From Parcubacteria group bacterium (lineage in GTDB: Bacteria > Patescibacteriota > Minisyncoccia > Phycocordibacterales > UBA2135): a stretch of 64,000 bases of DNA. The stretch covers positions 164,927 through 228,926 of the forward strand of contig JACQLQ010000004.1 in assembly GCA_016204045.1 (NCBI GenBank), in the 5' to 3' direction. Shown here piece after piece: positions 32,209-51,437 of this stretch (the stretch's first letter is position 1; each line of letters begins with the position of its first letter). A model generated the notes under the pieces. It saw only the letters and a list, made by a program, of their open reading frames with translations, had not been told where the DNA came from and ran no database searches. Both the position numbers and the translations under genes were made by a program.

Positions 32209-32457
32209 AATCGTGACTGTCCCCATTTCTTTTACGGCATAACTGTGTACGCAAGAATGCGCATGTCGATAAGCTCCTTGGCATCGAGCATAAGTTTCTC
32301 AAACCGTCGATAGTCTTCGGGGGCGTCGAAGATCTGCATACGACCGTTTGCGCGATTGATGACGTGATAGACCTCATTACCAACGTCGACGCGAGCTAAT
32401 CGTGGCATTCAATAATTATATCATGATTTGCAGAAAAGAATCGTGACTGTCCCCATT
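32209..32457. repeat. 19-nt perfect direct repeat (aatcgtgactgtccccatt) at 32209-32227 and 32439-32457, bracketing the transposase fragment
   Basis: Exact match seen in the sequence. Confidence 0.8.
32232..32408 (-). pseudogene. truncated IS200/IS605-family (Y1 HUH / RAYT-like) transposase, N-terminal 58 codons only
   Basis: MPRLARVDVGNEVYHVINRANGRMQIFDAPEDYRRFEKLMLDAKELIDMRILAYTVMP then a stop, exactly where the HUH motif (NHxHLL) should follow. Confidence 0.7.
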
Positions 32458-33199: not shown

Positions 33200-33209
33200 C
33201 ATATAATTT

Positions 33210-34613: not shown

Positions 34614-34970
34614 AGTATGCTTTCAATTGTACCAAAATGAGACAAATGCGACACCACAGTGGCATTTTGATGTAGTATCGCGTCTTACCTGTGGATTATT
34701 CTTCTTTGACGACTACAAATATGTGTTAATATATAAATACACTTGGATATATGTGAGTAACCTCACATGAATCCGTAAGAGACTCTCTGAGTGGAAGGAA
34801 TGGCATCATTCCTCCGCCGAAAGCGGTTAAAGCCTTCTTTGGCTTACCCGCTTTTTCAATGTCATGTGATCACGGGTAGTCATAGGCAATGACTGCTTTT
34901 TTGATTGGTGGTCGATACACTCAAAAAAAGCTTTCATGGATGCTAATTAAAAATTAGCCACAAAGCAACC

Positions 34971-36305: not shown

Positions 36306-36314
36306 CAACGCATC

Positions 36315-36938
36315 ATGGCAAAACCGGAACGCACATCTCCAAACAAAATGCCGTTGCGGCAGCCGCCGAAGCGGGAATTAAAGATGCGCCAGATCGTCCG
36401 GCAATTGCAGATTACCCCGATTCCTCAGATAGCATGCGAACGCACGGGGGTATCCCGCGCAACGTATTACCGATGGAGAACCAATGACGTCGTTTTTTCC
36501 CGCGCTGCCGACCACGCGCTTGAGGCCGGACGGTTTTTCGTCAATGATGTTATCGAGTCGCAACTTATTCGAAAAGCAAAAAATGGCGATGGGGCATCCC
36601 AGAGATATTGGCTTTCCCATAACCATCCGAAATACTCGAAAAAGCAAATTCACGAACACTGTCATATCTGCGAAGTGAAAAGTACAGAAGAAAGACACAG
36701 GGACTCTAGGCGCGATCGACGAGGGTACGAAGTCGTTTATGGCGGTATCCTGAAAAATATCGGGGCAGACGAGGTTGACGAACGAATGGAAAAGGATGCC
36801 CACAAGATCGAGGACTGGATGTTTGAGAGATTCGAGATGCTGGGTGAGGATACATCTATTGAAAATGACGGCAACGATCCATCAAACAAATCCGGTCATC
36901 AAAATTCGAACGCGCCTACACCGCCGGATCATTCGTAA
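36315..36938 (+). CDS. HTH protein (phage terminase-small-subunit / HTH_23-like)
   Basis: ACERTGVSRATYYRWR helix-turn-helix near the N-terminus. Confidence 0.5.
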   Translation: MAKPERTSPNKMPLRQPPKRELKMRQIVRQLQITPIPQIACERTGVSRATYYRWRTNDVVFSRAADHALEAGRFFVNDVIESQLIRKAKNGDGASQRYWLSHNHPKYSKKQIHEHCHICEVKSTEERHRDSRRDRRGYEVVYGGILKNIGADEVDERMEKDAHKIEDWMFERFEMLGEDTSIENDGNDPSNKSGHQNSNAPTPPDHS

Positions 36939-37375
36939 ATCTCAAGGCCGAAGATTTCTTTTTTGAGTTTGCCGTAATCCTCCAGCGTATTAACGGGCTC
37001 CCACTGCTCGCCGCCTTCATAAGCCCAACTGCTCACGATATCCTCTTTAAGAACATCGTAAATTCTCCGCACTCTAAAATCTTTGTAGGGACTCTGAATA
37101 TCGTCAATCTTTACTGCAACATCCATCTCTGCAAAGCAGGATTTTCGCTTCGCATCATACGTGCTGTGCAGAACCTGAAGAACTGCCGTGCCAAGATTAT
37201 CTTTGCCGGACTGCTGTTCCGCAAGCTCTCTTGCTTTTGCGGCACATTCTTCGTTGAGGCTAAACAGTTCTCTGTCGCCTACTTCGCTCTTATTCCAGAG
37301 TAATCCGTACGAGACGATTGCCGCGGCGACAATCAATGCGGCAACGATTATTTGATTTTGTTTTATCCAATTCAT
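36929..37375 (-). CDS. membrane-anchored hypothetical protein
   Basis: N-terminal TM helix; no motif. Confidence 0.45.
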   Translation of the reverse strand: MNWIKQNQIIVAALIVAAAIVSYGLLWNKSEVGDRELFSLNEECAAKARELAEQQSGKDNLGTAVLQVLHSTYDAKRKSCFAEMDVAVKIDDIQSPYKDFRVRRIYDVLKEDIVSSWAYEGGEQWEPVNTLEDYGKLKKEIFGLEIYE

Positions 37376-37377
37376 TG

Positions 37378-37530
37378 CACTCTAGCGGGTTTTAGTGCGA
37401 CGGAGTGAGCCTAAACAAAAGGCTCCTGGCCATCGCAACGGAACCTTTCGGCCCCGCCCATACAGGTTTCCCCATATGACCCGCTAGAGTGACTCTGACC
37501 AGGAGTCCTTTGTTCTCTAGCGGGATTTTT
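37378..37530. promoter_or_regulatory. three copies of a 10-13-nt element (two direct, one inverted between them) that can form mutually exclusive hairpins; the second alternative is followed by a U-run on the plus strand
   Basis: cactctagcgggt at 37378-37390, acccgctagagtg at 37479-37491, ctctagcggg at 37515-37524 followed by attttt; copy 1 abuts the start codon of the minus-strand gene. Confidence 0.5.
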
Positions 37531-37657
37531 GACCATGCCACCGGATTTCTCCGAGGGTTTAGGTCACCGAATCGTTATTCAGTTGTAAAAACATTTTAAC
37601 GCAAATCGACCGTTGCGTCCATGGAACCTTAGCTTAGATATCGGTCTTTGCGAAGCC

Positions 37658-37671
37658 TGAGTTACCAACAG
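37658..37671. repeat. 14-bp direct repeat tgagttaccaacag (copy 1, 5 nt beyond the OLD gene stop)
   Basis: Exact match to 39627-39640. Confidence 0.8.
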
Positions 37672-37676
37672 GTCAT

Positions 37677-39578
37677 CTAAAATGCTTTTTGAGCAATCAC
37701 AGAGAAAAGTTTTGAAAAGTTATCTTTTGTCTCTTGCGACACAGCTATCTGCCCGGAAGACACTTTCTCATAAAACTGTCTCGAGAGGGGTGCTTTACTC
37801 GAGTCCGGTATTACACTGGAATTCAACTCTGACGATCGATAAGATTCATCTTTCTCAAGGACAAATTTGTTAAAGTCTGATTTGGCAATTAAATCTTCAA
37901 CTTGATGTCCATCTGTTTCGGAAACGAACGAAATATTTTCGTCTGTTAAAAGTAACTTCTCCTGCAAAATAGTTTTAATCTCCTTACCCTTATCGTCATT
38001 ATCCAATAAAGCATGAAAACCGAGTTTCCATCCGATGAGCAACGACACGATAGGTGGGGTATTATCAGCACCTTTGAGCGGAATAAAATGGACTTTTTCT
38101 AATTTTTTACTTGTAGATGCTGAAACAAATTTCAAGGCGGCTTGAAGATAGTAGTAATCTGAAATACCCTCCAGGATGAGATTGTGATCAGCTGCAATCG
38201 TCAATTGCTTGGTAACATCCAAGCCGATTGCAGTAATTATGGGCATAAGCGTAGTGCGGTCTGCGGCGGCATCAGAGGTCAAAGTAAAAACCTTAGTACC
38301 ACGGTTTTTTCTTTTGTCGAAATCTTTAATGACAAGACGAATACGATCAAGCCGGGCGGGATCAATCAGATAGGGAGAGTGGGTCGTTAAAACAATCTGA
38401 TTTTCCTTCGAAAGATCTGTAAGAACCTCGAGGATATCGTTCTGCGCCTGTGCGTGAACAAAGAGGCCTGGCTCATCAATTAATACGATGCTTTTATAAT
38501 CTTTGGCTTCTGCCTTAAGCAAGAGATAGAAGGCTAGAAACCACTGCAACCCCTTGCTCCTTTGTTCCATTCTGAAGGGTTCTTTTTTACCCTTTTCGTA
38601 GAAAGCAAAAACGAGCTTGTCGCCATTTAGCTCAACACGAAGGTCGATTTTATCTTGCTGCCAGCTACCTTTAAAATCCCCTTCTAGAACTGCCGATGCC
38701 TTCTTGGTATGAGCTAGTTTGTTTTGTGTTGTGATGCTGGTATCACTAAGTTTCTCGAGATCCAAACCTGAAATAGTGCAGTAACGCTTAACGCTAGTAT
38801 GTGTTTTTGCGGTGGTAAGATTAATTTCAAACGGCAGAGCATCTTCCTTATCAAAGGCTTCAAAGTAGACGAGGTTGGGTACCAGTTCCCAAATCTTTTC
38901 CTTATTTTCCTCACGTTCCTTTCCCAACAGATCGTACTCAGCTAAGGCTGCTTCTACTTTTGCTTTAAAATCTTTACCCTTCGTCTGCTGTTCAACAGAC
39001 AGTTGTGCTAAAGCTGCTTCAATTTGTGGTAAGAAAATTGTTCGCAGTTTCTCGGCATCTTGAATAGTAATCTTTTGTAAATCCTTAAGCGGATAGTTTG
39101 CAATAGGTTTCTCGTCGAACGCTGCCTTGAGTACGATAAAACCATCGCTAAGTTTTTCAATGCACTGACGTCTTTTTTTTGTTTTGTTCGTGAGCAGGAG
39201 ATCGATTACAGAACCATTGATACTATCGAACGTATAAGAATTATCGAAATGTTTTGTTATCGAAAATGGCGTAGCCAAAAGTGCTTCTTTACTGATTCCG
39301 GTCGGTAACCGGAGTCCATTTAGCAACTCGGCAAGGTCATCTTTTTCGAGTTTGAAAGTAAGAGTGATATCAGGTTCAATTCCTTCCGCCCCCATTGGAA
39401 GATCATCCTCGTCGAGGTTGGTTTCTTCCCCACGATTAAACGTCTCTAGCGCCTTGAGCAAAACGGTCTTCCCGGCCTCGTTTTTGCCAGCCAATACGGT
39501 GACATCTGAGGCAAGCTCGACATCACCGGAGTCGGCAATAGACCTAAAGTCCGTGATTTTGAACTTGAGTAGCTTCAT
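37677..39578 (-). CDS. OLD-family ATP-dependent endonuclease (ABC-type ATPase plus C-terminal Toprim); PARIS AriA-AriB-fusion / GajA-like defense candidate
   Basis: Walker A LAGKNEAGKT; Walker B VLIDEPGLFVH; IVLTTHSP; C-terminal LILEGISDYYYL Toprim-like EGxSD. Confidence 0.75.
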   Translation of the reverse strand: MKLLKFKITDFRSIADSGDVELASDVTVLAGKNEAGKTVLLKALETFNRGEETNLDEDDLPMGAEGIEPDITLTFKLEKDDLAELLNGLRLPTGISKEALLATPFSITKHFDNSYTFDSINGSVIDLLLTNKTKKRRQCIEKLSDGFIVLKAAFDEKPIANYPLKDLQKITIQDAEKLRTIFLPQIEAALAQLSVEQQTKGKDFKAKVEAALAEYDLLGKEREENKEKIWELVPNLVYFEAFDKEDALPFEINLTTAKTHTSVKRYCTISGLDLEKLSDTSITTQNKLAHTKKASAVLEGDFKGSWQQDKIDLRVELNGDKLVFAFYEKGKKEPFRMEQRSKGLQWFLAFYLLLKAEAKDYKSIVLIDEPGLFVHAQAQNDILEVLTDLSKENQIVLTTHSPYLIDPARLDRIRLVIKDFDKRKNRGTKVFTLTSDAAADRTTLMPIITAIGLDVTKQLTIAADHNLILEGISDYYYLQAALKFVSASTSKKLEKVHFIPLKGADNTPPIVSLLIGWKLGFHALLDNDDKGKEIKTILQEKLLLTDENISFVSETDGHQVEDLIAKSDFNKFVLEKDESYRSSELNSSVIPDSSKAPLSRQFYEKVSSGQIAVSQETKDNFSKLFSVIAQKAF

Positions 39579-39626
39579 GGAAATATCCAGTATGTTAGCA
39601 CTTTTTTGAGAAAAATGAAGGGCCTA

Positions 39627-39640
39627 TGAGTTACCAACAG
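39627..39640. repeat. 14-bp direct repeat tgagttaccaacag (copy 2, in the divergent OLD/recombinase intergenic region)
   Basis: Exact match to 37658-37671. Confidence 0.8.
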
Positions 39641-39684
39641 CTAGATCTGGACTTCCCCAGCCAGGGCGTCATTGATGTTGATAT

Positions 39685-41427
39685 ATGAGAAAAGCGGCAT
39701 TATACGCCCGTGTGAGCACGGCGCTTCAAGAAAAAGAAAAAACAATTGAGAGCCAAATCGCTGAACTAAAAAAACAGATACAAGTGGCTGGAAATGTTCT
39801 CGTTAAAGAATATGTTGATAATGGACACAGTGGAGCATATCTTGATCGACCCGCTCTTGATGAGCTACGTGCGGCACTCAAGACAGATAGCTTTGATGCT
39901 GTCTACTTTCATTCAACCGATCGTATAGCGCGAGATGTAATGCACCAAAATATTATCATTAGTGAACTTATCAACAACAAAAAACAAATCGTTATCAACG
40001 GAATAGATTATGAGAAAAATCCTGAAAATGAGTTCTCTCTTACGGTGCTTGGAGCTGTCTCTCAATTCGAGCGAGCAAAAATCATGGAACGAACGCGACG
40101 AGGGTGGTTACATCGTCTACGCCAAGGCCAGCTTGTCTCTCAAGGCCGGGGAACGTACGGGTATGATTACATGCGCAAGACTCCAACCAGTCCTCCAGCG
40201 CTTGTCATAAACGAAGAACAAGCTAAAACAGTGCGTTATATATTTGAACAGTATGCAAACAATTTGAAGGGTGTTTGTGCAATCTCACGTTCGCTCGAGC
40301 AAAAAAATATTCGTACTTGTAGGGGAAAGAATTTGTGGAATAGAGAAATATTAATTCGGATGCTTCAAAACAAGACATATATTGGTACGCGTTATTTCAA
40401 CACACGTACTCGAGAAAAAACCGCAGACGGAACACGCAAAAAGAATTGGAAGATCGTTTATCGTGACCAATCGGAATGGATCGCTGTAAAAGTACCTACG
40501 ATTGTATCGCAAGATCTTTTCGATAAAGCACAGGAGAGGATTAAAAAATCTCGCGAACGATACTGCCAACCTGATGTTATATTTCTCTTGCGTGGGTTAG
40601 TAGTATGTGGGGAATGCGGCCGTAGGTACTGTTCATGTCGCTGGTATGAGAAAAGAAAGCTTCAAACAGGAGAACTGCGAGTGGTCCACTGGGCCGCATA
40701 CCGATGCAATTCAGGGTCTAGTCTTGCACAGCATGATATCTCCAAACTTAAACGTTGTCGCAACCCTCGAATTTCAACTCACATCCTTGATGACAAGATC
40801 ATGGTGATGATCCAAAATATTATGCTGGATCCTAAAAAACTTTCTCTCTGTATGGAACGAGGCGGGCATGAACCAGATGTAAATGCCGCACGAGAAATCG
40901 CACGTATTGCACGGCGAGCAAAGCTACTCGACAATCAAAGACGACAAATAATTGATAACTATGCACACGGACGCATAGGAACTGAAAAGTATATAAAGAG
41001 AAACCAAGCGCTTGATACTGAGCTTAATCGGCTCACAGACAAAAAAAGAGAGCTTACTAACGCGGTATATACCCAAAGCGGCTTCGCTGAAAAAAGTATC
41101 CAACAATTCTGCGCAAATGCACGAATGGAATTTGTAACCTGTAATGATTTCGACACGAAGCGAAAATTTCTACGCGACCATATTGAGAAGATAATTTTTA
41201 ACCGTGATAGAGTGACCATCATTGGTTCTGTCCCTGCTAAAAATGCGCCAGAAAATACCCCATTGTCCTTTCGGATAGAGGATGAGATTGATAGAAAAGC
41301 AATACGATCAAAAACAGGACGTAAAAATGCTTTAAATTGGCCGAAGAAACGCGCAACATGGAGAGCGGTATTCTCTGAGACTTCAAGTAAGGTAATGGAA
41401 ACCAGACGAAAGCGTAGAGCCGGCTAA
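39685..41427 (+). CDS. large serine recombinase (resolvase catalytic domain plus recombinase domain plus zinc ribbon)
   Basis: AALYARVSTALQ catalytic Ser motif; DRIARD; CGECGRRYCSCR zinc ribbon; C-terminal coiled coil. Confidence 0.93.
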   Translation: MRKAALYARVSTALQEKEKTIESQIAELKKQIQVAGNVLVKEYVDNGHSGAYLDRPALDELRAALKTDSFDAVYFHSTDRIARDVMHQNIIISELINNKKQIVINGIDYEKNPENEFSLTVLGAVSQFERAKIMERTRRGWLHRLRQGQLVSQGRGTYGYDYMRKTPTSPPALVINEEQAKTVRYIFEQYANNLKGVCAISRSLEQKNIRTCRGKNLWNREILIRMLQNKTYIGTRYFNTRTREKTADGTRKKNWKIVYRDQSEWIAVKVPTIVSQDLFDKAQERIKKSRERYCQPDVIFLLRGLVVCGECGRRYCSCRWYEKRKLQTGELRVVHWAAYRCNSGSSLAQHDISKLKRCRNPRISTHILDDKIMVMIQNIMLDPKKLSLCMERGGHEPDVNAAREIARIARRAKLLDNQRRQIIDNYAHGRIGTEKYIKRNQALDTELNRLTDKKRELTNAVYTQSGFAEKSIQQFCANARMEFVTCNDFDTKRKFLRDHIEKIIFNRDRVTIIGSVPAKNAPENTPLSFRIEDEIDRKAIRSKTGRKNALNWPKKRATWRAVFSETSSKVMETRRKRRAG

Positions 41428-41597
41428 GTCTATAATAAGATACTAAAAATACTTTTTATCGGAGGGAACTTGAAATGGTTTTTTTATTATTTCGTGAGTT
41501 CGGCCTTCCTCGTTTCCCCCACTTAGGGCATGCAGGAGATGAAATTTGAAACACGTGTGCTTTTTTGCGTCGGCCGAGCTAAATGATTTGTCGTGCG

Positions 41598-42719
41598 TCA
41601 TTGTTCAATCTCATATTCAAGATCCAGTATCCAGGGTTTATAAGGAGGATTATCATTATTGTTCACATTTTTATTGCGCTGCAAGACACTTTTATGAACA
41701 ACGGGTTTATCTTTTCTATTTGAATCCCAAGAACGTTGTTTCTTGTGATAAGATGAGTTAACCAAACCATTACGTGAATTGTGCATATAACCATTCACGT
41801 CGCCGTTAATAGAAAGAGAATTTTCAGGATTTATATGAAGACCGTGATTAACAGCCTTCTTCTTCATCCAGACAAGCGGAATGTCTGATAATTCCTGTTC
41901 ATCATAACCACCACCAACATCGGTATGCATTCCACAGAACCATACTTGCTTAATGGTTTGGTGTGGCAAAACATCTGGGTCCCACAAAATAGGATGAAAA
42001 GTTTTTCGTTCATCATCAATTGCTAATGCCTGATAGGCATTTTCAACAGATTCACTCAATTTAAAATCATGGAATTTATACTGAAGTCCGTAGATACTAC
42101 CAAGAGATTTTTTCTGAAATCTGGCTTTCGCCTTAATAATCATCTCAATAAATACATTAACTAGTGTAGTTTTTAGGTCAGTCAATTCATCTGGTAGACC
42201 CAGCGCATCAACGGTATCATAGCAACCGAGAAATTTAATTCTTGTCCGTATTGTGTGTTGTGTGGATAGAAACTTTTTTACTTCGATTTTACGCTTAGAT
42301 TCGTCTTCATATTCATAGATTTCATAAGCTTTCTCTACCAGATTAGGGCGAGATTCGGGTATTATGCCAAAGTAGTGAATAAAACTTGATAGGCTGCGAA
42401 CTGTCGCGGCACCACGACTAAAACCAAACAAATAGATCTGGTCACCTTCTTTAAAGTTTTTGGAAATAAATGTGTAGCAATCCAAAATGTTTTTTGACAT
42501 ACCCGCACCGACAACGTTGCCAGCAACCCTTTGCCCCCAGTTAGTACCTAATCCTGGATCATAGAATGAAACCTGTCGTGAGGTAGAATTTTCAATTATA
42601 TTGAATAGCTTATAAATATTTGTACTCGGTCCCTTGCCACCTTTCTGCCCCGTACCGTCAGAAAATATCACAATATTTTTGGGCATATTATTTTTACTTA
42701 TGGAATTGGGAACAGTCAC
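41598..42719 (-). CDS. DUF2235 alpha/beta hydrolase (T6SS Tle1 phospholipase-like)
   Basis: IVIFSDGTGQ and GFSRGAATVR motifs characteristic of DUF2235 / Tle1. Confidence 0.75.
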   Translation of the reverse strand: MTVPNSISKNNMPKNIVIFSDGTGQKGGKGPSTNIYKLFNIIENSTSRQVSFYDPGLGTNWGQRVAGNVVGAGMSKNILDCYTFISKNFKEGDQIYLFGFSRGAATVRSLSSFIHYFGIIPESRPNLVEKAYEIYEYEDESKRKIEVKKFLSTQHTIRTRIKFLGCYDTVDALGLPDELTDLKTTLVNVFIEMIIKAKARFQKKSLGSIYGLQYKFHDFKLSESVENAYQALAIDDERKTFHPILWDPDVLPHQTIKQVWFCGMHTDVGGGYDEQELSDIPLVWMKKKAVNHGLHINPENSLSINGDVNGYMHNSRNGLVNSSYHKKQRSWDSNRKDKPVVHKSVLQRNKNVNNNDNPPYKPWILDLEYEIEQ

Positions 42720-42727
42720 GATTATCT

Positions 42728-42976
42728 CTAACTAATGAGTGAATATATTGCTGCTGCTATGAACGCAACACCAACCACTATCCATCCTATAGTTCTTACA
42801 TATCTTTCGGTGTTAATTTCTTGTTTAGAGATACTCTCGTATTCTTTATCGATATTTGTACCGGGCATTTGCTCCCCCCTCAAAAAGTGTTTTTTTGACA
42901 CCATTCGAACAACACCCTGGTATATTAGGTAGCTTCCAATGAGGATTAGGAAGATTTCGAAGATTATACTTGTCAT
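42728..42976 (-). CDS. small two-TM membrane protein, candidate immunity protein for the main RHS toxin
   Basis: Immediately downstream of the RHS C-terminal toxin domain; two hydrophobic helices. Confidence 0.4.
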   Translation of the reverse strand: MTSIIFEIFLILIGSYLIYQGVVRMVSKKHFLRGEQMPGTNIDKEYESISKQEINTERYVRTIGWIVVGVAFIAAAIYSLIS

Positions 42977-43015
42977 ATTATCTTTGGTTTGTATTTGTAC
43001 AAATATTTTGAATGA

Positions 43016-46000
43016 TTATTCTTCTTCATTATCTTCGTTATTATCTGACGATGGTGCTGTAATAATATTACCATGCCAATCTACAACAGCGCCACTTGGT
43101 GTTGTGTAGGTTTGTTTTGTTGGATCTGTCATTGGTGCTTGCTGTGGTATCTGTACCTGCCCCTCAAAGACACTGATCAATATTTGTCCAACATCAAAAA
43201 GTGTTCTTTGGTATTTATTAACTTGAGTTTTCGCAAATTCAACTGCCGCATCAAGCCCTAATACACCCTTAGAATTATCATCAAAATCTGACTTGTAACC
43301 CTCAACAACATCTTTTACTGTTAACAGATTTGAGGTACCGCTTATTATTTTCCGAGCTGCTTCTCTAGTAGCAGGTGACAGTAAGAATTGAAGGACCCTC
43401 TGGGCAATCTGAGCAACAACTTCACCGCTGGGGTCACTCATAGTTATCGGATTATTCCCAGAATAACTATATGAATTTAAGAGTTGCGGATTTGAAAGTA
43501 CTGCCTCTCTGTTAATTTCTCCCGGTTTTTTATTAACCGTCAGAATATATTCCAACATCGGTTTCATCATCGCAACATCTCGCGCTACTGGATCCTGGCT
43601 CATAAACTGACCTCTTGAGTTTTGATAATATCGTGCGTTCAAATAATTCAACGAAGTTTCAGTGTCAAAGCGCTCTCCTATGTAATGCCGGTCGGTTGCA
43701 TTGGAGCCAGTAGAAACTCTTTCAGATCCGTAAGGATAGTAATCTAATGCTTGTGTGACATCACCATCTTCATCGGTTGTAATCGTCGTTGAGTTTAAGT
43801 GATCAGCGTGTGAGAAATTGGTTGAGGTTGCAGTGCCATTTCCTTCGACAGTGGCGAGCAATGTCCCGCTGGTATCAAAGATATGTTTGGTGGTTGTTGC
43901 AGAAGCCACCGTGTAATAGCTACCCACGTACGTCGTCGTCGCTGTCCCATTTCCTTTGGTGACCCTGTCATTCTGGAAATCATACCCATAGAACGTCGTT
44001 ATACCTCCCACCGTCGACGACGCCATCCTGTCTCTGTAATTCCAACCATAAATATCTGAACCGAAGAAGATCACATTCCCGTTGTTGTCGTAGGTTACAC
44101 TTACTCCGCCAATCGAAGTCGCCGCATGCGGATTCGCATAGTTCGTCTCGGCGTAGGTGTAGTCCCCCAACCTGGAAGTTGTCGCTATGTTCCCAATACG
44201 GTCGTAGGTGAATGTTTGTCGGTAACCGCCATCAACAGGGACGGTCGTTGAGGCCGTGAGGAGCCGGTAGAGATCGTCGTAGGTGTAGTTCACCACCTTT
44301 CCCCCACCGAAGCCGGAGAGGTCTTTGACTTGGGTAATGTTGCCGGCAGTGTCGTAGGTATACGTCAGCGCTTGCAGTGCGTTGTGCGCCGCCGTCGTCG
44401 TTCCTACGTTGTTTATTGCCACGTTAATCCTACAGAGACACGGTGTGCCGGTTGCGGAGTAGGACGGTGTCAGCTCGACCTTGAGCCACAGGAACTTGCC
44501 GTAGAGATTGGAACCTGCCGTAACACCCGGGATTGACGTGGTTGACGTCGCAATGGCGGTGGTGAAGTCGCTCGCCGCCGGGGTTGTGGTGGACGAGGTG
44601 ATGAGGGTCTTTACCTTTACGTCGGCGCCGTTTCTGGCGCAGACACAATACTCAATGAAGCTGTCTTCAACGTTCGTGATGGGAGAAAGGTCCCAGGGGT
44701 CAGAGATCCAGTAGCCGGCTTGGTATTGCGGAGTAGAGGTCGAGCCGAAGTTGTAGAGTTTGAGATACTTTGCCGGTGTTGTAGTGGCAAGCGAAGGGCC
44801 GCCGACAGTTGTGGAGGCATGTGTGCCATCCGCGTCATACGTCCGAAGTGGCCACGCCCTCTGGTCTCCCTTATACGTCGGCATAGACATGGTGAGGTCG
44901 CCCGTGTAGAAGCGGTAGCGGTCGCCGTAGTAGACAGCGGTGGACGAAGTCGACATGAATGCCTGAAAACTATAGTCCTTGAAGTCCTGGAGGCCTAAGA
45001 GGGAGATGGAGAACGGCCCCGTTGAGGTCGCGGCCATGGTCGTTGTCGTCGCGGTCCAAGGGTCATCATTATCAAGGAGAAGCCCGTAGCGGAAACCGAC
45101 GGTGACGGTCGAGGTTGTGGCCGTCCCCATGAGGTTAATGAGGTTCCCCACAAGGTCAGCGCCGTCTTGTTGGACGTTTGTCGAACCCATGGTAAGAACA
45201 GGGTTTTTCCCGCTAAAGGGTGTCGTGGTGCCAACAAGAGTCGTGATGGTGGAGAGCCGGTACAGCGCGTGCTCGTCGTAGTCATACAGCGACGTGTCGC
45301 CGTTACCAAAGTGACGCGCGGTGACGCTCTCTCCGGGGTTGTAGTTTGCGTTGTGGAGAACGAAACGCGAAAGGGTTGAGGTCGAGGTCGGGAGAAGGTC
45401 CACTGACTCAAGGAGCCCCGCGGCGTTAAAGCGATACGAGGCGGTTGCGGCGTCGGGGTAGACGATACTCGTCATATTCCCCTGCCGATCGTAGGCAAAG
45501 GAGGTCAGATAGCGCGTGCTATTGATTGTCTTCTCCTCGCTTGCTATGTTCCCCAGCGCATCATAGACAAAGTTTGCCGCGGCCGCGGTCGTAGTGGCAG
45601 AGCAGAGGCGCCCGATGCCCTCGGGACAGGTGTCGTACGCGAAAGCGACTTCGGTCCCCGCCTCGAGTGTGTAGTTCTCGGTCAATACTCGGTTAATGTC
45701 GTCGTAGGTGAAGTTCACCGTCTGGTTTTTGCCGTCTATCTTTGTCGTGACGTTCCCTGCCGCATCGTAGAGAAGTGTTGTTGATGCAAAGCCGGTGTCC
45801 GCCGCATCATGCAAGTCCTCTGACTTGGTGAGGCGGGAGAGGTTGTCGTAGGTGAAGTTGCGCAAGTTTCCAAGCGAATCGGTAATCTTGGTGAGGTCGT
45901 TCCGCGCATTGTATTCATAGGTGGTGGTGTACTGGCTCCCGTCGTCATGCTCTATCACGGTTTTGAGGTTCCCGAATGCGTCATTCGTGAATTGCTTCGT

Positions 46001-49000
46001 ATTGTTAAGCGCGTCTATGACGGTCGTCGTCCAGTCATCATACGCCCTGGTCGTCGAACCGACGGCGTTTAATTCGTTAGTACTACGCTTAAGCGCATCG
46101 TAGGTGTAGGTCGTGTAGAACGTCGAGTCGCTGGTGGAGGCGGCACGTGAGGAACCAATGCCAAAGTAGGGAAGCGATTCGCGCTTCAAGAGGCCTACGA
46201 GGTTGTATTCAAAATCGCGGACAGCGTAGGTGTTTCCATCTTCCGCTTCTTTACGCGTCTGCAGCTTGCGGTCGAAGCCATCGAGATAGGTATACAGTTC
46301 TGTCGAGGTGGCGGAGTTTAGATAGTTGGTTTCGAGTGTCTTCCTTGAACCTACGGTGTCGGTATAGGCAATGGTCTTTTTGTTAACCAAACTCGAAGGA
46401 GATGCGACATCTGGGATCTTTTCTACTGTCACACGGTCAAGGCCGTCAAAAGTCGTTTCAAATGATCGTCCGTTCGGGTCAACAAACTTCTGCACTTTCC
46501 CGGACGAATAGTCGAGGTAGCGCTCGGTAATGTGGCCATCGGGGTTCGTGGTGGTGGCAACATGAATGTTTTTCGCTTCATACACAAATGTTGTCGCCTT
46601 ATCACGAGGATCCTTCTCTTCTGTGACGAGACCATAGGTGTTGAAGGTCTTTTCAAAATCAATGTAGGTCGAGCCCGTTTCCCATTCTTCGCGCTTGGTC
46701 TGGTTACCTTTTTGAACGCTCCCCAACCCTAGTGAATCGTAGTAAAAAAGTTTTTGACTTAGCGTTGTCGAGGCATAGTTAGTGAGCATTTCTTCATACG
46801 GGAGCCCGGTAATATCGGTTGACGTGGCATACGCGTATGAGAAGACACTCTTGTCAGTGCCCGAATCCGTAAACGTGCCCGCGTCCGCGCCCACAACCTC
46901 CCCCCAGAGCGATTTTTGCGAGAGGTTGCGAGAGGTATTGTTGTAGACGTACGTTTCCGCCATGTCTTTGTGGTCGGAGTCACCGTCGTAGTCAAACGTG
47001 ATTGACTGGATCAGTTTGACGAAATTCCTGCCTTGCCCCTCTTCATACCGGTCCCATTTGTTGATGGTCTTCTTCATCAAGGCGCCCGCGCTGTTTTTCA
47101 CTTCAATGCGATACGGTTTGCCCGCTTTTGCGATATGATCGTCGTACTCACCGAGCACGGAGTTTGTGGTCGTGCCTTGGTGGAAGTAGGTGATTGTTTT
47201 TGTACCCGCTCCGTCTGTGGAAGTCGCAATATGGAATCCCGCGAACTGCCTGTCGTCCGCGCCGCTGAAATAGTAAAAGGCGCCGGCGTATTCACGCGTT
47301 TCAGTTGTCGGTGTGCCAAAGCCATCGTTCCTTGTAATTGTTTGCACCGTCTGGATGGGCGCGGGCATTTCCGTATTCAAGACATGTCCCCCACCGTCTT
47401 TGTACTCAACCGACGATTTGTATGTAAAGGAAATGGTGCCCCCTTGCGCAGTCGTAACTTGCGTGAGAATGTCATTGCGATTGCCGTCATTGATGTAGGT
47501 CTCGACACGAATTTCTCCGCTCGGATCGGCATAATAGTATGTACCGACAAAATCGGTAAGCCCGTCGCCGTTTGCATCCGTAGCTCGCCAACCGCCGTCT
47601 CGGTTGATACTATTGTAGTAGTGAGTGAAGTAAATATCGGGCAACGCGGAAGAGAGCGCAGAATCATAGATCCAGTTAGGTGAGGAGGTGCTCACATTTT
47701 TGTATACTTCATACACACTGCTTCCTCCGAGTGTTTTGTGCCCTTTAATAATATCCGGCAACCCGTCGTTATTTACGTCGGTAACACGAACACCAAGGTC
47801 TGTGCTGCCATTTTCATAAAAATACACAGGTATTGTCGAGGAAGAAACTTCTGTAAAACCAGTTCCATTATTAACATACGCTTTTTTTACATTTTCAGAA
47901 GGACTGTCATCGTACGCAGCGACAATGCGGTCAATGAGCCCATCGCTATTCAAGTCTACGAGCGTTTGGCCTCCGGGGTCTTGGGATTGAGTGCCGATTC
48001 CACCGTAGAGGTTAGCGTCAGCATCCCAGCCCGTGGTGGTGGCACTAAAAAGATATACGCCACCACTCAAGATAAAATCTTCTTGTCCATCGGTATTTGC
48101 ATCCAACAAAAACGCATCGGAGTACCCGCTTCCAGTACTATAGAAGTACCCCGGCGCATTCCAAATGTTGTGATCTTCAAAGCCGAGACCTTTGTTGTAT
48201 AAATTGAGATAAAAGTTTTCCGTCGTGGATGCCTCGCCGGAGTTATATCTCACTTTTGCGAGATCAGTGATGCCATCACCGTTAAAATCCCCCATGCGGG
48301 CTCCTGTGTCATCAAGGCCTGCATTTGGTATCGCGAAACATTCGGGAATGTTGTGGCCCGAGTTCGCCCACCCTGCTCCGATATTAAAATACGTCGCTTG
48401 TTGGTCACACGCTCCCGTTGTAGGACCGTGAGATTTAACGATATCGATAAGCCCATCACCATTCATCTCCGCAAAACGAACACCTACATCGCCTCCGTTA
48501 ACTGTACGTATGAAATCAGTCGGCGCATCCCACGCCGCGTCAATTGTCCATGTTGGGCTCGTTGACTCATAGGTAAACGATATGGCGGGAAGTACCACAG
48601 TATTTCCGTCTTTGTCTTTTCCTGTTTCGGTAATGGAGCTTAAAAGGGAGCGGCTACCATTTACTCCCGTCGTATACGCAAGGTCGTATTTCCGCACCCA
48701 CACACCGTCAATTTTGACGAGTATTTGATTGATACGATACCGAGACTCTACAGAAAAGGCGGCGTTGTACGAAGCAAGGTAATCTAGGCGCGACTCTGTG
48801 CCAAATGAGATTTCAAAATCGCCTGCCGTTGTACCATTTCCGGTATAGGTAATGGTTGCGGGGTAAATCTGTCCGTTGTCTTTCGTATAGGTATAGGTAA
48901 TGTAGTTGTTGTTTTTGTCGCGGACCTCCTGCAGCATCCATTTGAAAATTTTCGTGCTGTCAGCTGGGTTGCTTTGGCGAGCGGCGGTCGTCGAGCCAAA

Positions 49001-49513
49001 GGTATATATGGTGCCAAATGCATCTACCGCTTGCCATGCGTCATCGGTGTCAAAAAATGTGTAGTCATAACTGCGTTCATTGGAAAAACGTGGTCCATAA
49101 TCTTCCGTTACCGTTGTTGAGGCGACAAAAGCCAGTTCACCGTCAAAGGACGACGTGAAATGGCGAGCTGTGTAGAGATTCTCTGTTCCCGTCTTATTTA
49201 CCCGCTCAATGGAAGGAATGGGGATGTCCCAGCCATAACCCACAATGTTCGTGTTGTTATTTCTCTGGTTGTTGTACTCTAGGGCAACTTCAGGTTGCAG
49301 ACCATTTCTTCCTGGTGGAATAGAGAGCGGAATCGTGTGAATCAAGGCGCCCGATGACTCACTTGCGCTAACGCTTGGGCGAAGGACGTTATCGGCCGTA
49401 ACGAAAAACTTTGCGTTAAAATCCGCATCGGCAAAGACGGAGAGTGGTGTGCTCACTAAGAGAAAAAACAGGGCAATACCACTAAGGATTGTTTTTGAGT
49501 ATGGGGATGTCAT
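43016..49513 (-). CDS. secreted RHS-family polymorphic toxin (SpvB-N, FG-GAP propeller, YD/RHS shell, RHS core, variable C-terminal toxin), TcB-TcC-fusion / WapA-like
   Basis: Signal peptide; SpvB motif PLSIPPGRNGLQPEVALEYNN...GYGWDIPIPSIER; DxNxDGxxD FG-GAP repeats; many YD repeats; RYYQNSRGQFMSQDP...NPQLLNSYSYSGNNPITMSDPSGE core; unique approx. 130-aa CT. Confidence 0.9.
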   Translation of the reverse strand: MTSPYSKTILSGIALFFLLVSTPLSVFADADFNAKFFVTADNVLRPSVSASESSGALIHTIPLSIPPGRNGLQPEVALEYNNQRNNNTNIVGYGWDIPIPSIERVNKTGTENLYTARHFTSSFDGELAFVASTTVTEDYGPRFSNERSYDYTFFDTDDAWQAVDAFGTIYTFGSTTAARQSNPADSTKIFKWMLQEVRDKNNNYITYTYTKDNGQIYPATITYTGNGTTAGDFEISFGTESRLDYLASYNAAFSVESRYRINQILVKIDGVWVRKYDLAYTTGVNGSRSLLSSITETGKDKDGNTVVLPAISFTYESTSPTWTIDAAWDAPTDFIRTVNGGDVGVRFAEMNGDGLIDIVKSHGPTTGACDQQATYFNIGAGWANSGHNIPECFAIPNAGLDDTGARMGDFNGDGITDLAKVRYNSGEASTTENFYLNLYNKGLGFEDHNIWNAPGYFYSTGSGYSDAFLLDANTDGQEDFILSGGVYLFSATTTGWDADANLYGGIGTQSQDPGGQTLVDLNSDGLIDRIVAAYDDSPSENVKKAYVNNGTGFTEVSSSTIPVYFYENGSTDLGVRVTDVNNDGLPDIIKGHKTLGGSSVYEVYKNVSTSSPNWIYDSALSSALPDIYFTHYYNSINRDGGWRATDANGDGLTDFVGTYYYADPSGEIRVETYINDGNRNDILTQVTTAQGGTISFTYKSSVEYKDGGGHVLNTEMPAPIQTVQTITRNDGFGTPTTETREYAGAFYYFSGADDRQFAGFHIATSTDGAGTKTITYFHQGTTTNSVLGEYDDHIAKAGKPYRIEVKNSAGALMKKTINKWDRYEEGQGRNFVKLIQSITFDYDGDSDHKDMAETYVYNNTSRNLSQKSLWGEVVGADAGTFTDSGTDKSVFSYAYATSTDITGLPYEEMLTNYASTTLSQKLFYYDSLGLGSVQKGNQTKREEWETGSTYIDFEKTFNTYGLVTEEKDPRDKATTFVYEAKNIHVATTTNPDGHITERYLDYSSGKVQKFVDPNGRSFETTFDGLDRVTVEKIPDVASPSSLVNKKTIAYTDTVGSRKTLETNYLNSATSTELYTYLDGFDRKLQTRKEAEDGNTYAVRDFEYNLVGLLKRESLPYFGIGSSRAASTSDSTFYTTYTYDALKRSTNELNAVGSTTRAYDDWTTTVIDALNNTKQFTNDAFGNLKTVIEHDDGSQYTTTYEYNARNDLTKITDSLGNLRNFTYDNLSRLTKSEDLHDAADTGFASTTLLYDAAGNVTTKIDGKNQTVNFTYDDINRVLTENYTLEAGTEVAFAYDTCPEGIGRLCSATTTAAAANFVYDALGNIASEEKTINSTRYLTSFAYDRQGNMTSIVYPDAATASYRFNAAGLLESVDLLPTSTSTLSRFVLHNANYNPGESVTARHFGNGDTSLYDYDEHALYRLSTITTLVGTTTPFSGKNPVLTMGSTNVQQDGADLVGNLINLMGTATTSTVTVGFRYGLLLDNDDPWTATTTTMAATSTGPFSISLLGLQDFKDYSFQAFMSTSSTAVYYGDRYRFYTGDLTMSMPTYKGDQRAWPLRTYDADGTHASTTVGGPSLATTTPAKYLKLYNFGSTSTPQYQAGYWISDPWDLSPITNVEDSFIEYCVCARNGADVKVKTLITSSTTTPAASDFTTAIATSTTSIPGVTAGSNLYGKFLWLKVELTPSYSATGTPCLCRINVAINNVGTTTAAHNALQALTYTYDTAGNITQVKDLSGFGGGKVVNYTYDDLYRLLTASTTVPVDGGYRQTFTYDRIGNIATTSRLGDYTYAETNYANPHAATSIGGVSVTYDNNGNVIFFGSDIYGWNYRDRMASSTVGGITTFYGYDFQNDRVTKGNGTATTTYVGSYYTVASATTTKHIFDTSGTLLATVEGNGTATSTNFSHADHLNSTTITTDEDGDVTQALDYYPYGSERVSTGSNATDRHYIGERFDTETSLNYLNARYYQNSRGQFMSQDPVARDVAMMKPMLEYILTVNKKPGEINREAVLSNPQLLNSYSYSGNNPITMSDPSGEVVAQIAQRVLQFLLSPATREAARKIISGTSNLLTVKDVVEGYKSDFDDNSKGVLGLDAAVEFAKTQVNKYQRTLFDVGQILISVFEGQVQIPQQAPMTDPTKQTYTTPSGAVVDWHGNIITAPSSDNNEDNEEE

Positions 49514-49516
49514 GTC

Positions 49517-51295
49517 CTAGTCAGTACACAGCGCCGTGGAGGTTGTATTGAATTGCTTCTCAGTGCTTGTCGCTATGCCACCAGTGCCATTCACCGATGT
49601 GACGGTGTAGTAATATACTGCGTTGTGGAGAAGTCCTGATAGGTAGAGTGAGTGACTCGTGGTATTCGCGCTTGTACTTGCCACTTCGGTAAAATTGGTT
49701 GCTGAAATCGGGGAAATGAGGCTGTACCACACCTTGCTGTTTGAGTTTACAGAGGTCGTCCATTTGATGTCTGTCCAGCCAGAACCAGTGTTTGCGGCAT
49801 GGATATTCATAAAATCAAAGGCAGTGGTTGTGAATGAGGATTCCGTAGAAGTGCCTGTTGCGCCGCTACTTTGCGTTGAAGAAGCAAAAAAGTAATACGT
49901 GGTGCCCGGAGAGAGGCTGGACAAGTTAATTGTATGGCTCGTCGTTGCGGTGCCATCGTAGACACTCGAATCAGCAACCGTAACACCAGCCGTGGTGTCA
50001 TAATGCACTCCGCTAGTAGAGGAGAGATCAGTCGTCCAGGTAATTTGTGCCGTACTTGCGGTAATGTTCGACGATTGAAGACCGGAAAGCACCGGAGCGG
50101 CCGCTGAATGTTCTACGACTAGTTTCGGATCATTTGTCGTTCCCGTTTGGTCTGCGTGGTAGGAAGTAATATTATTAAATCCTGTTGGTGCAGAGTTATT
50201 AACATCAATGGAAGTCCTTACCCCAAACTTTATAATTCCGCTACCGGTTGCCGCACTCTCAATCGCGGAAATCCCGGTACCATTTATCGTTATATCATTT
50301 GCTGTACCGCCCGTGGTTACCCAGCTCGAGTGCGCCATTGAACCATACTGGGTTGTACCAAACTGATCAAAATCTGCCGTGCCAAGTGCTGTGTCGCTCG
50401 CTGGTGTAGATGCAACAACAACCATATTCACTGTATCCGCGTTATTTATACCGTCTCCATTCCCATAGAATGTAAGTGTTGCGGAGGTAACATCGTCGGA
50501 TCCTATGGCATCTCCATCGTCAAAAAGAAAGGCGCCACGCTTTATATAATATGTGGCCCCTGAAAGCGAGGTCACTTCTATGTTGTTACTTGTCGTGCTG
50601 TCGGTCACTTCATCTCCGGTACTTGCATCGCGTACGGTCGAAAACGTTGACCCAGAATTCCCTACATATCCGTCAACTGTGGTCGATTCGGGATGAGGAT
50701 CTGGTCGTATGGTCGTGGTGGTATTCCCAATTTTCCCTTTGATAATGTACCCTGATGCATATTTTTCTTTCTTTACTGAAAGGGTGTGGGCCAAATCTTG
50801 GAGGAGCGCTTCCTTTGGGTCCTCGCGAAGTTTGCGGGTCTTAGTCGTAATTTCTTTGGTAACTAGATCCTCTTCTTGCCACTCTCTCACAATAGGCCCG
50901 TTGGGGTCATCAACAAGGACTGGGGGGTTAATCATGACAAACCGCTCAATCTCTACTGTGCCGTCTTTACCAAAGCCGATTTGATTGCCATTTTTGTCCC
51001 ATGCTTTTGCAAAGACCTCGACACCACCTTTCCGCGCTTTCATATCTACAACCTCAATCGCATAATCCCCCCGTTCTGTTCTTGGAATTGTTTTAATTTT
51101 TGCAATCTGCTCCCCCTTCACTGTGCCACGATCTTGGGGAAGCGTGAATCCGAGAGCTTCCTCCAGAGTGTTGTAGTAGGCACCATTGACCATGACCGCG
51201 GTTTCGGCAAGTGCTTGCATGTGTACGACAACCCCAAGCACGAGCGTGAAGGAGAAAATCCCGAAAATCCCTAATAGTTTTGAGCGTATGCTCAT
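49517..51295 (-). CDS. secreted surface protein with C-terminal fibronectin-III-like repeats
   Basis: Signal peptide; Thr/Ser-rich; two ITWTT...TTYYF / IKWTT...AVYYYTV Fn3-like units; stop 4 nt before the RHS start. Confidence 0.55.
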   Translation of the reverse strand: MSIRSKLLGIFGIFSFTLVLGVVVHMQALAETAVMVNGAYYNTLEEALGFTLPQDRGTVKGEQIAKIKTIPRTERGDYAIEVVDMKARKGGVEVFAKAWDKNGNQIGFGKDGTVEIERFVMINPPVLVDDPNGPIVREWQEEDLVTKEITTKTRKLREDPKEALLQDLAHTLSVKKEKYASGYIIKGKIGNTTTTIRPDPHPESTTVDGYVGNSGSTFSTVRDASTGDEVTDSTTSNNIEVTSLSGATYYIKRGAFLFDDGDAIGSDDVTSATLTFYGNGDGINNADTVNMVVVASTPASDTALGTADFDQFGTTQYGSMAHSSWVTTGGTANDITINGTGISAIESAATGSGIIKFGVRTSIDVNNSAPTGFNNITSYHADQTGTTNDPKLVVEHSAAAPVLSGLQSSNITASTAQITWTTDLSSTSGVHYDTTAGVTVADSSVYDGTATTSHTINLSSLSPGTTYYFFASSTQSSGATGTSTESSFTTTAFDFMNIHAANTGSGWTDIKWTTSVNSNSKVWYSLISPISATNFTEVASTSANTTSHSLYLSGLLHNAVYYYTVTSVNGTGGIATSTEKQFNTTSTALCTD

Positions 51296-51408
51296 AGAAA
51301 AAATATGCTAGTTAAAGACAGTAAAAATTACTTTCATTGTATCTGTTGAAAGAACACCGGGACAGATGTTGATAAGCAATCAACGACAGAACGGAGTTTG
51401 AGTCAACA

Positions 51409-51437
51409 AAAGAGGCGCCTCTGGGGCGCCTCTTTTT
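51409..51437 (-). terminator. rho-independent terminator (bidirectional hairpin)
   Basis: aagaggcgcc-tctgg-ggcgcctctt hairpin with T-runs on both strands, 5 nt after the stop of 51441-51665. Confidence 0.65.

Follow-up and report, generated by a model that had tools for sequence, protein, structure and literature searches.

Patescibacteria are tiny bacteria, mostly attached to other cells, and a locus from one of them (Parcubacteria group bacterium, contig JACQLQ010000004.1) raises the question of what kind of weapon, if any, is built around a 2165-residue RHS protein. We analysed it within a stretch of 64,000 nucleotides (nt), called the window here. An original prediction, made from the letters alone, had seen in it a fused TcB-TcC-like RHS polymorphic toxin in a genome resembling those of the candidate phyla radiation (CPR). 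All four open reading frames (ORFs) that it named were present at their coordinates, the domain matches agreed with a fused TcB-TcC-like toxin, and the CPR-like origin was borne out by an NCBI entry identical to the RHS protein, named 'MAG: VCBS repeat-containing protein [Parcubacteria group bacterium]' and encoded on a contig of 268.6 kb. What had been overlooked, beyond the genes of the RHS operon, was an orphan core-tip-immunity module (32522-34613), a repeat of the core region and an island of mobile and defence genes. We consider it very probable that the locus is a Sec-exported RHS polymorphic toxin with a C-terminal tip and its immunity gene (CT1 and imm1), an exchangeable orphan pair (CT2 and imm2) and an inserted island (Table 1).

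The RHS protein gave hidden Markov model matches, in Pfam and NCBIfam, to every domain that had been proposed for it, and its N terminus (MTSPYSKTILSGIALFFLLVSTPLSVFA|DAD) is consistent with the predicted Sec signal peptide, as judged by inspection and not by a predictor. SpvB follows at residues 54 to 215 (PF03534, E = 1.1e-16; a partial match to model positions 4 to 183 of 287), then an FG-GAP propeller (FG-GAP_3, PF13517, E = 4.4e-7) with five DxNxDG motifs at residues 409, 471, 520, 579, and 646 and an EMNGDG at 349, a shell of RHS/YD repeats (RHS_repeat, PF05593, E = 7e-19; YD_repeat_2x, TIGR01643), and the Rhs-associated core (Rhs_assc_core, TIGR03696, residues 1925 to 2030, E = 2e-12). 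The protein was matched by phmmer to the solved Rhs proteins 7q97, 8h8a, and 8cp6, and a match was also obtained to the solved SpvB N-terminal domain 6p0x. Judged from sequence, the locus appears to have all the features of the SpvB/propeller ('TcdB/TcaC') class of RHS toxins, the immunity gene included. If the protein resembles the Tc BC and Rhs cocoons of solved structure, its 2165 residues would fold into a YD/RHS cocoon closed by the SpvB/propeller end.

PAAR and VgrG, the marks of a type VI secretion system (T6SS) Rhs effector, had no Pfam match in the RHS protein or its neighbours. Pfam showed only SpvB, FG-GAP, and RHS domains in the protein and no cell-wall-binding repeats, so that the label 'WapA-like', which had been given to the locus, proved imprecise. 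The two systems share a Sec-secreted RHS/YD toxin of a producer lacking an outer membrane, a polymorphic tip and an adjacent immunity gene, the producer of the window toxin being one that we take to be a monoderm. WapA of Bacillus subtilis has cell-wall-binding repeats and lacks SpvB and propeller, whereas no wall-binding domain was detected in the window protein.

A protein search returned about 990 homologues (38 to 45% identity), often with Patescibacteria, Parcubacteria, Ryanbacteria, Kaiserbacteria, or Paceibacterota in their names. All of them combine SpvB, FG-GAP, and RHS domains, with the propeller Pfams PF12256, PF01839, and PF13517, and they differ in their C-terminal toxin Pfams. 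Scanning the GTDB species genomes gave 303 relatives, the best 80 of which were overwhelmingly from Patescibacteria; the others among these 80 were a few Acidobacteriota, one Methylocystis, one Niastella, and one Methanoperedens contig. Exact-sequence look-ups with the RHS, YchF, imm2, and 373-residue Tle1-like proteins returned nothing, and those with the accessory protein encoded upstream of the RHS gene returned fragments of 2 to 3 kb only. In the following, L numbers denote related loci and P numbers related proteins. The closest relatives, L005/L006, carry RHS proteins 60 to 63% identical to that of the window and share its layout of wzy, accessory protein, RHS, tip, small gene with two transmembrane (TM) segments, signal-peptide orphan, ychF, and leuS; the order RHS-ychF-leuS is also found in L003/4. 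One homologue lies on a contig of Candidatus Methanoperedens nitroreducens (L024, NZ_FZMP01000168.1, positions 7353-13346; 41% identity over residues 43 to 2033) and others on Terriglobia, Bryobacteraceae, Methylocystis, and Niastella contigs; these occurrences could reflect wide horizontal spread or binning errors.

The class itself is known. Proteins with signal peptide, SpvB, integrin-like propeller, and RHS repeats were catalogued in 2012 as 'TcdB/TcaC' polymorphic toxins (Zhang et al. 2012, PMC3482391), and an RHS/YD toxin of 2487 residues, with an immunity gene beside it, was reported in 2018 from a Saccharibacteria genome (PMC6031116). Given this precedent and the abundance of the family in Patescibacteria, the rarity that had been implied for a full delivery module in a minimal genome was overstated. 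The window locus shares with the 2012 class the signal peptide, SpvB, integrin-like beta-propeller, RHS repeats, core, hypervariable tip, and downstream immunity gene. It differs in its undescribed tip and immunity families, in a large accessory domain inserted in the shell and in a carbohydrate-binding module (CBM) encoded as a separate upstream gene; Patescibacteria are not among the lineages listed in the table of that study.

Where shell and core end and the tip begins could be read from the family. Across 39 aligned homologues, the core residues R1961, Y1962, D1974, N2021, P2022, D2027, and G2030 were invariant or nearly so, and the RHS protein has the PxxxxDPxG motif and the conserved aspartates. 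By analogy, the core is a putative aspartyl autoprotease that would cut after DPxG at residue 2030, at DPSG|E in the window protein, CT1 then staying inside the shell until a target cell is met. Directly after this motif, all 39 homologues diverged completely, and 90 family tips had a mean column identity of 8%. About 70% of these tips had no Pfam match, which makes a tip that cannot be recognised the usual case here and no exception. Those with a match included alpha/beta-hydrolases (4 of the 90), ribonucleases, Tox-REase-7, Ntox44, RNase-A-like, HNH, NlpC/P60, CHAP, M15 peptidases, SLT, and a Tse3-like muramidase, a repertoire of types that argues for antibacterial function. The median isoelectric point (pI) of the tips was 8.87, and 65% of them were above 8.

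Downstream of the main gene lies an orphan 'mini-Rhs' gene, whose product consists of a signal peptide, about 75 residues of unique sequence, an Rhs core, and CT2. The orphan core (core_A) matched Rhs_assc_core (TIGR03696, E = 6e-17) and was 57% identical to residues 1853 to 2032 of the main protein (BLASTP, E = 7e-59), whose core we call core_B; the N-terminal 100 residues had no significant match to RHS homologues. A partial 3' core, a different tip, an immunity gene of its own and a position downstream of the main gene make this an orphan module. CT2 gave no match in a search of PDB sequences. It shared 55% identity with the tip of P0095, a full-length RHS protein, and 31% with that of P0005, and the gene directly after P0095 encodes a homologue of imm2 (34% identity, E = 2e-19). 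CT2 and imm2 co-occur in L003/4, L017, L058, L029, and L019 (six or more loci), including on full-length RHS proteins. Core hits numbered at least two in 23 of the 72 related loci; three or more of the 23 have one core split by an insertion, which leaves about 20 with true orphan copies.

Signal peptides recur on such genes. Among orphan-like ORFs of core and tip in the related Patescibacteria loci, about 9 of 37 had their own methionine and a strong signal-peptide-like segment (L007:7992-11358; L017:19927-21501; L046:9908-11260; L054:18311-19453; L005:10244-11569; and the orphan of the window, 33210-34613). L007 has three mini-Rhs genes in tandem, the signal peptide running almost directly into the core. 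These proteins without a shell may act as independent secreted toxins or may have arisen from RHS paralogues by internal deletion, and it is a possibility that core plus tip behind a signal peptide is a functional toxin format of its own in Patescibacteria.

The main and orphan genes share, in their core regions, an imperfect direct repeat whose length is about 430 nt, whose blocks D1 to D3 are 74 to 78% identical and whose upstream edge is a perfect match of 35 nt. The two exact copies are 9632 nt apart. The GC content at third codon positions (GC3) is 0.685 over the final kilobase of the shell and drops, exactly at the 35-nt repeat, to 0.394 in the core; CT1 has a GC3 of 0.25, and the orphan core, CT2, and imm2 are similarly AT rich at third codon positions. 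This is the arrangement of enterobacterial rhs loci, for which Jackson et al. (2009, PMC2935791) described C-terminal displacement, with a conserved shell, an AT-rich core-tip-immunity cassette, and downstream orphans. The window shares with those loci the main gene followed by an orphan core-tip-immunity module, the AT-rich cassette, the abrupt compositional break within the core, and direct repeats permitting tip switching (PMC2935791). It differs from them in secretion by Sec instead of the PAAR/VgrG T6SS route, in the start codon and signal peptide of the orphan and in the recombinase/OLD/ParB-methylase island within the array.

Homologous recombination at the shared repeat would put CT2/imm2 on the full-length gene in place of CT1/imm1, deleting 9632 bp: the shell would be fused to core_A-CT2, and CT1, imm1, and everything between would be lost. 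Such a switch would follow the classical scheme of rhs C-terminal displacement and orphan activation. Orphan tips of Salmonella are reportedly activated by recombination, as Koskiniemi et al. are said to have found in 2014.

The same repeat could be read differently. The 9.6-kb unit between the 35-nt copies might be a present or recent circular episome, a recombinase/ParB-methylase element, which we regard as unlikely. Such a unit would carry a mini-Rhs gene of signal peptide, core_B, and CT1 together with imm1 and the Tle1-like gene, and one crossover within the core would have brought it in, a course of events that we equally doubt; the outcome, no easier to believe, would be a reciprocal tip swap with a resident full-length gene that first bore CT2, the tip now found on the orphan. 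An exact patch of 35 nt at the upstream edge of repeats that are only about 74 to 78% identical has, by our estimate, a chance of about 0.01 (0.77^35 x ~100 starts), both ORFs are intact across the junction, and the sharp GC3 break lies there. A syntenic relative has CT2/imm2 on a full-length RHS protein, signal-peptide mini-Rhs genes exist in L007 (three), L017, L046, and L054, and recombinases (L037, L071, and L050) or ParB-methylases (L020 and L074) stand beside RHS cassettes elsewhere. However, L005/L006 already have the signal-peptide orphan next to ychF and have no island, so the orphan is probably resident and the island a separate insertion. Moreover, core_A, CT2, and imm2 are as AT rich in GC3 as core_B, CT1, and imm1, no displaced core copy was found beyond the recombinase elements of L037, L071, L020, and L074 in the available DNA, and IMG/VR scans with the core profile and the recombinase returned nothing related. 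A Logan contig from SRR12113384 (9657 bp, 100% identical to window positions 34269-43925) was discarded as evidence of a circular element, since a k=31 unitig running from one repeat copy to the other should have just this length, 9597 unique nt plus twice 30 nt of the 35-nt repeat. If true, the locus would have been captured while a mobile element was exchanging RHS tips, and the excisable 9632-bp episome, able to swap tips with full-length RHS genes by crossover in the conserved core, would represent the 'episomal pool of dissociated tips' that was predicted by Jackson et al. (2009, PMC2935791) and never observed.

On the reading that we prefer, a Sec-exported toxin with CT1/imm1 and an exchangeable orphan, the 82-residue two-TM protein is the immunity protein of CT1. 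The tip had been described as a C-terminal domain of about 130 residues with no recognisable motif, and CT1 indeed had no match in Pfam, PHROG, or PDB sequences. It was modelled as a helical region of about 100 residues, then a tail forming a short beta-hairpin (TYTTPSGAVVDWHGN), and last an acidic end; the single-sequence AlphaFold2 model was mostly helical and poor (predicted local distance difference test [pLDDT] score of 52), and a fold search with it was dropped for that reason. When 1.84 billion cluster representatives were searched exhaustively with HMMER, the sole real relative to emerge was P0121 (E = 1.9e-9; over about 100 residues, 36% identity), while five other matches were rejected as low-complexity repeat proteins. 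P0121 is an orphan Rhs core with a tip on a 2.8-kb contig (L002), with an Imm33-like gene upstream, as expected in an orphan array. Directly downstream of it, a two-TM ORF of 84 residues is 51% identical to imm1 (pairwise E = 5e-27). CT1 and the 82-residue protein thus behave as a cognate toxin-immunity pair, since the one CT1 relative precedes an imm1 homologue, and the candidacy of the small gene, which had been proposed from its position, gained from this; what would have refuted it, a conserved tip without the small ORF, was not what L002 showed. From these sequences, imm1 appears to travel with the tip and not with the shell.

The hydrophobic segments of imm1 lie at residues 1 to 22 and 62 to 82 (hydropathy), and the loop between them is basic, holds most of the conserved residues, in the pattern SKKxFLxxExMPxTxIxKEYxSI...ERY, and is predicted to be cytoplasmic by the positive-inside rule. 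Neither CT1 nor imm1 matched a known family, so that both may be called uncharacterised, as had been supposed. Comparison of imm1 with the two-TM ORF after the L005 tip gave no significant similarity (E = 0.17). CT1 would target the cytoplasmic membrane, either depolarising it or forming pores in it, with imm1 as its cognate protector; a membrane-directed activity is suggested by the fact that imm1 is an integral membrane protein and is the weakest link of this explanation. The likeness is to Tse5/Tsi5-type systems, in which a membrane-depolarising Rhs tip is paired with a small integral membrane immunity protein, and PDB entry 8cp6 is among the structures that matched the RHS region. CT1 and CT2 have no detectable sequence similarity to solved structures, and delivery would not be by T6SS. 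The glycine content of CT2 is one that we presume to resemble that of glycine-zipper pore formers.

A short motif of the C-terminal tail, TYTTPSGAVVDW(H/G)GN, with the variant GTYDFGK(D/E)xW, is appended to unrelated tips, namely CT1, tips of the CT2 type and the L005 tip (window 43019-43120 in CT1 and 33213-33330 in CT2; L017:21400-21498; L019:16940-17014; L005:9706-9834). It is often followed by an acidic end and is the only part of the CT1 model with a pLDDT above 70.

Several observations weigh against our reading of the locus. CT1 is small and acidic (pI 4.55 against the family median of 8.87), it has no catalytic motif or strongly hydrophobic helix, and its predicted fold is of low confidence. 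Its co-occurrence with imm1 rests on two loci only: profile scans with CT1 and imm1 of Joint Genome Institute (JGI) metagenomes and GTDB genomes gave no relatives, nor did word-indexed searching, whether with CT1 on its own or with a profile of two sequences, which makes the pair a rare one. The orphan is atypical in having its own start codon and signal peptide, which misfits a simple displacement. Finally, no delivery machinery (TcA, T6SS, or type VII secretion system) is evident by which the tip would cross the envelope of a target.

Some of these points would also fit a CT1 that is not a toxin, being a degenerate or structural extension or a remnant of a pre-toxin or linker, next to an unrelated 82-residue membrane protein. 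We judge this quite improbable, as we do its corollary that the functional weapon, if any, is the orphan CT2 or lies at other loci. To the lack of a catalytic motif, the acidic pI, the poor structure prediction, and the two known occurrences one may add the missing Pfam match, which says little either way when about 70% of family tips lack one. Against this, the small ORF tracks CT1 and not the shell, and in L002 it follows an orphan CT1 module in an immunity/orphan array. It is also better conserved between the two loci than the tip itself (51 versus 36% identity), and the tip starts exactly after the conserved cleavage motif, with a compositional shift of the cassette type.

Table 1. Coordinates of the features of the RHS locus and its surroundings in the window.
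Feature	Position (nt)	Strand	Details
Accessory secreted protein	49517-51295	-	592 aa, signal peptide residues 1-30
DNRLRE-type carbohydrate-binding jelly-roll	50096-50728	-	about residues 190-400 of accessory protein
Main RHS polymorphic toxin	43016-49513	-	2165 aa, intact ORF
RHS signal peptide	49430-49513	-	residues 1-28, by inspection only
SpvB domain of RHS protein	48869-49354	-	Pfam PF03534
FG-GAP propeller of RHS protein	~47444-48496	-	Pfam and DxNxDG motifs
RHS/YD shell	~43742-47416	-	Pfam and NCBIfam
Shell insert	44372-45238	-	289 aa, residues 1426-1714, family-wide insertion hot-spot
Rhs-associated core, main gene	43424-43741	-	NCBIfam TIGR03696
35-nt exact repeat, copy 2	43896-43930		main gene, 5' edge of exchangeable cassette
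CT1 toxin tip (putative)	43019-43423	-	residues 2031-2165, 135 aa, pI 4.55
imm1, candidate immunity protein	42728-42976	-	82 aa, two TM
REP-like 19-nt pseudo-palindrome	42705-42723	-	5 nt after imm1 stop
Tle1-like (DUF2235) alpha/beta-hydrolase	41598-42719	-	PF09994, E 5.5e-72
Mobile/defence island	34614-41597		between the two modules; Pfam, NCBIfam, PADLOC, PHROG
Large serine recombinase	39685-41427	+	580 aa, phrog_95 integrase, E 9e-94
OLD-family ATPase-TOPRIM nuclease	37677-39578	-	PADLOC Old, E 5e-28
148-aa ORF of island	36929-37375	-	
Helix-turn-helix/small-terminase-like protein	36315-36938	+	
ParB-N6/N4 DNA methyltransferase fusion	34971-36305	+	phrog_498 methyltransferase, E 2e-81
Orphan 'mini-Rhs'	33210-34613	-	467 aa; signal peptide, Rhs core, CT2
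Orphan signal peptide	34548-34613	-	
35-nt exact repeat, copy 1	34264-34298		inside orphan gene
CT2 tip	33213-33851	-	213 aa, 20% Gly, pI 5.07
imm2, candidate CT2 immunity protein	32522-33199	-	225 aa, four TM (hydropathy)
REP-like copies 2 and 3	32209-32227, 32439-32457		inverted relative to the 42705 copy; between imm2 and ychF

The gene upstream of the RHS gene had been described as encoding a secreted Fn3 surface protein. The signal peptide and the Fn3-like region held up (two Fn3-like domains at about residues 404 to 585, behind an N-terminal alpha/beta domain, with weak Pfam matches at residues 404 to 490), and the description left out a DNRLRE-type CBM that relatives carry fused to the RHS protein. 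Residues 7 to 412 were 31 to 43% identical (E down to 1e-81) to segments inside RHS homologues, and these segments sit at a hot-spot of the shell (reference residues 1425 to 1714), at which the window protein has an unrelated insert. A model built from 13 such segments had a CBM fold (pLDDT 76, predicted TM-score [pTM] 0.80); alignment with full-length RHS proteins had come out scrambled and was replaced by one of sub-sequences. According to this model, the accessory gene encodes as a protein of its own a module for carbohydrate binding that in relatives is displayed on the surface of the cocoon, and the split-versus-fused pattern argues for a functional link with the RHS protein. The stop codon of the accessory gene and the ATG of the RHS gene are separated by 3 nt (TAG gac ATG) and not by 4, as had been counted, so translational coupling of the two genes is possible. 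Just upstream of the accessory gene, at 51408-51436, is a perfect GC-rich hairpin with a 13-bp stem and a T-run, probably a bidirectional terminator isolating the accessory-RHS-imm1 operon from upstream genes; promoter and terminator scans did not rise above shuffled background.

The 289-residue insert itself had no Pfam match. It was 70 to 72% identical in L005/L006 and 38% in P0002. Among 39 homologues, the inserts at this hot-spot ranged from 8 to 1564 residues and included Ig_Rha78A_N (PF25788) and DNRLRE-like CBM modules. The accessions PF13385 and PF10102, which we take to be a LamG-like domain and DUF2341, also appear there in the annotations of homologues. The hot-spot is probably a surface loop displaying binding domains. 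The surface-exposed insert and the separate CBM/Fn3 protein would then aid target recognition, and the accessory module in particular suggests that targets are selected by binding of surface polysaccharide.

Between the two modules lies a stretch of about 8 kb that is absent from L005/L006. Since these relatives are syntenic with the window, we take the stretch 34614-42706 to have been inserted and to carry the Tle1-like gene as cargo; an island with this gene, a recombinase, an OLD nuclease, and a ParB-methylase would have been inserted between the modules, beside a REP-like (repetitive extragenic palindrome) element. The recombinase has the Resolvase, Recombinase, and zinc ribbon domains (PF00239, PF07508, and PF13408) of a large serine recombinase, and its GC3 of 0.36 is close to that of the Tle1-like gene (0.32). 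In RHS loci of unrelated Patescibacteria genomes, tandem pairs of recombinases 40 to 43% identical to that of the window lie directly 3' of an RHS-immunity pair (L037:18582-21844 and L071:14112-17506), a related recombinase follows an orphan array (L050:22932-23987), and ParB-methylases 64 to 67% identical are found downstream of RHS genes (L020:19352-20677 and L074:19999-21288). This recurrence suggests a preferred insertion site or a link to the traffic of cassettes. Inverted-repeat scans at L037, L071, L020, and L074 showed AT-rich noise only.

The Tle1-like hydrolase had been assigned a fold and, by implication, a part in the toxin system, and only the fold stood: PF09994 (T6SS_Tle1-like_cat) is covered over model positions 1 to 285 of 287, with a GFSRG (GxSxG) motif. 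The protein lacks a signal peptide, its likelier start is the ATG at 42686 (373 residues), and it had no PADLOC, PHROG, or phage match; a 52-residue ORF downstream of it had no match, and neither vgrG/hcp nor Tli1, the context of a Tle1 effector, was found in the window. Because neither L002, the second CT1 locus, nor any of the 80 related RHS loci, the syntenic closest relatives among them, has the gene, we place it outside the RHS system. That it is instead a second effector, a lipase cooperating with or delivered by the RHS protein, seems to us very unlikely: it follows imm1 on the same strand by 8 to 41 nt, it has the Tle1 domain and GxSxG motif, and alpha/beta-hydrolases do occur as family tips, but this distribution, the lack of a signal peptide and of a fused core, and the REP-like element that separates it from imm1 speak for a passenger of the island.

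The REP-like motif (AATCGTGACTGTYCCCA) occurs in 3 copies in the 64 kb of the window versus 0.03 expected. In several RHS loci of Patescibacteria, the pseudo-palindrome AATGGGGACAGTCACGATT, with its variant AATGGGGTCAGCCACCATT, stands where a toxin-immunity cassette ends, variants being found after such cassettes in L005/6 (two tandem copies, L005:10135-10192), L015, L029, and L070. In L003/4, two inverted copies (L003:19419-19437 and 20134-20152) flank a Y1 (IS200-like) transposase gene, which is the REPtron arrangement (Ton-Hoang et al. 2012, PMC3333891). We rejected the 17- to 19-nt motif as an attachment site or terminal inverted repeat of the island and call it a REP-like element because variants occur in loci without a recombinase and flank the Y1 transposase gene.

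As had been predicted, no TcA-like gene accompanies the RHS gene. Besides the latter, no ORF of the window reaches 1000 residues, the other large ones encoding leucyl-tRNA synthetase, RNase R, a Wzy/TPR protein, the OLD nuclease, the recombinase, and an unannotated protein of 952 residues, and TcA-type Pfam domains were absent from the scanned ORFs of the window and from the scanned non-RHS ORFs of at least 1000 residues within 10 kb of 80 homologues. The protein resembles the TcB-TcC cocoon of the Photorhabdus and Yersinia ABC toxins in SpvB, propeller, RHS cocoon, and an aspartyl-protease core with conserved Asp, and its fused arrangement resembles natural TcB-TcC fusions. It differs from Tc toxins in lacking a TcA partner, in having an immunity gene and in its acidic tip, and its targets are likely bacterial. 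In TcB, SpvB and a six-bladed propeller form the end that docks onto TcA. That established structural knowledge and the basic tips of the family, which are like Tc cargo in pI (PMC7861908), could suggest the BC part of a three-component toxin against eukaryotes with its TcA injector elsewhere in the genome, which is hardly credible given the TcA survey just described, the immunity genes and peptidoglycan hydrolases among the family tips, which imply bacterial targets, the pI of CT1, and the fact that Zhang et al. (2012, PMC3482391) treat proteins so built as an export class complete in itself.

In detail, the locus adds to the known class a CT1/imm1 family with two loci, a CT2/imm2 family with a membrane immunity protein, a split CBM accessory gene, a signal-peptide orphan, and an island lodged within the array. 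If we read it correctly, Patescibacteria widely use a Sec-exported SpvB/propeller/RHS cocoon with antibacterial tips, such as peptidoglycan hydrolases and nucleases, and immunity genes, adapted with carbohydrate-binding accessory modules that may set target specificity, and the tip-swapping genetics known from enterobacteria operates in them as well. CT1/imm1 and CT2/imm2 would be two candidate families of toxins, each with an immunity protein in the membrane; what is generally understood of polymorphic toxins is unchanged.

Two further ORFs of the window deserve mention. The ORF at 12157-15015 (+), which encodes the 952-residue protein and is the second largest, had no Pfam match at E < 0.01. 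The leucyl-tRNA synthetase (27528-30383, -) contains a NUDIX domain (PF00293, E = 2.9e-10) at residues 412 to 507, just after the editing domain; the L003 orthologue (776 residues) lacks this segment of about 145 residues.

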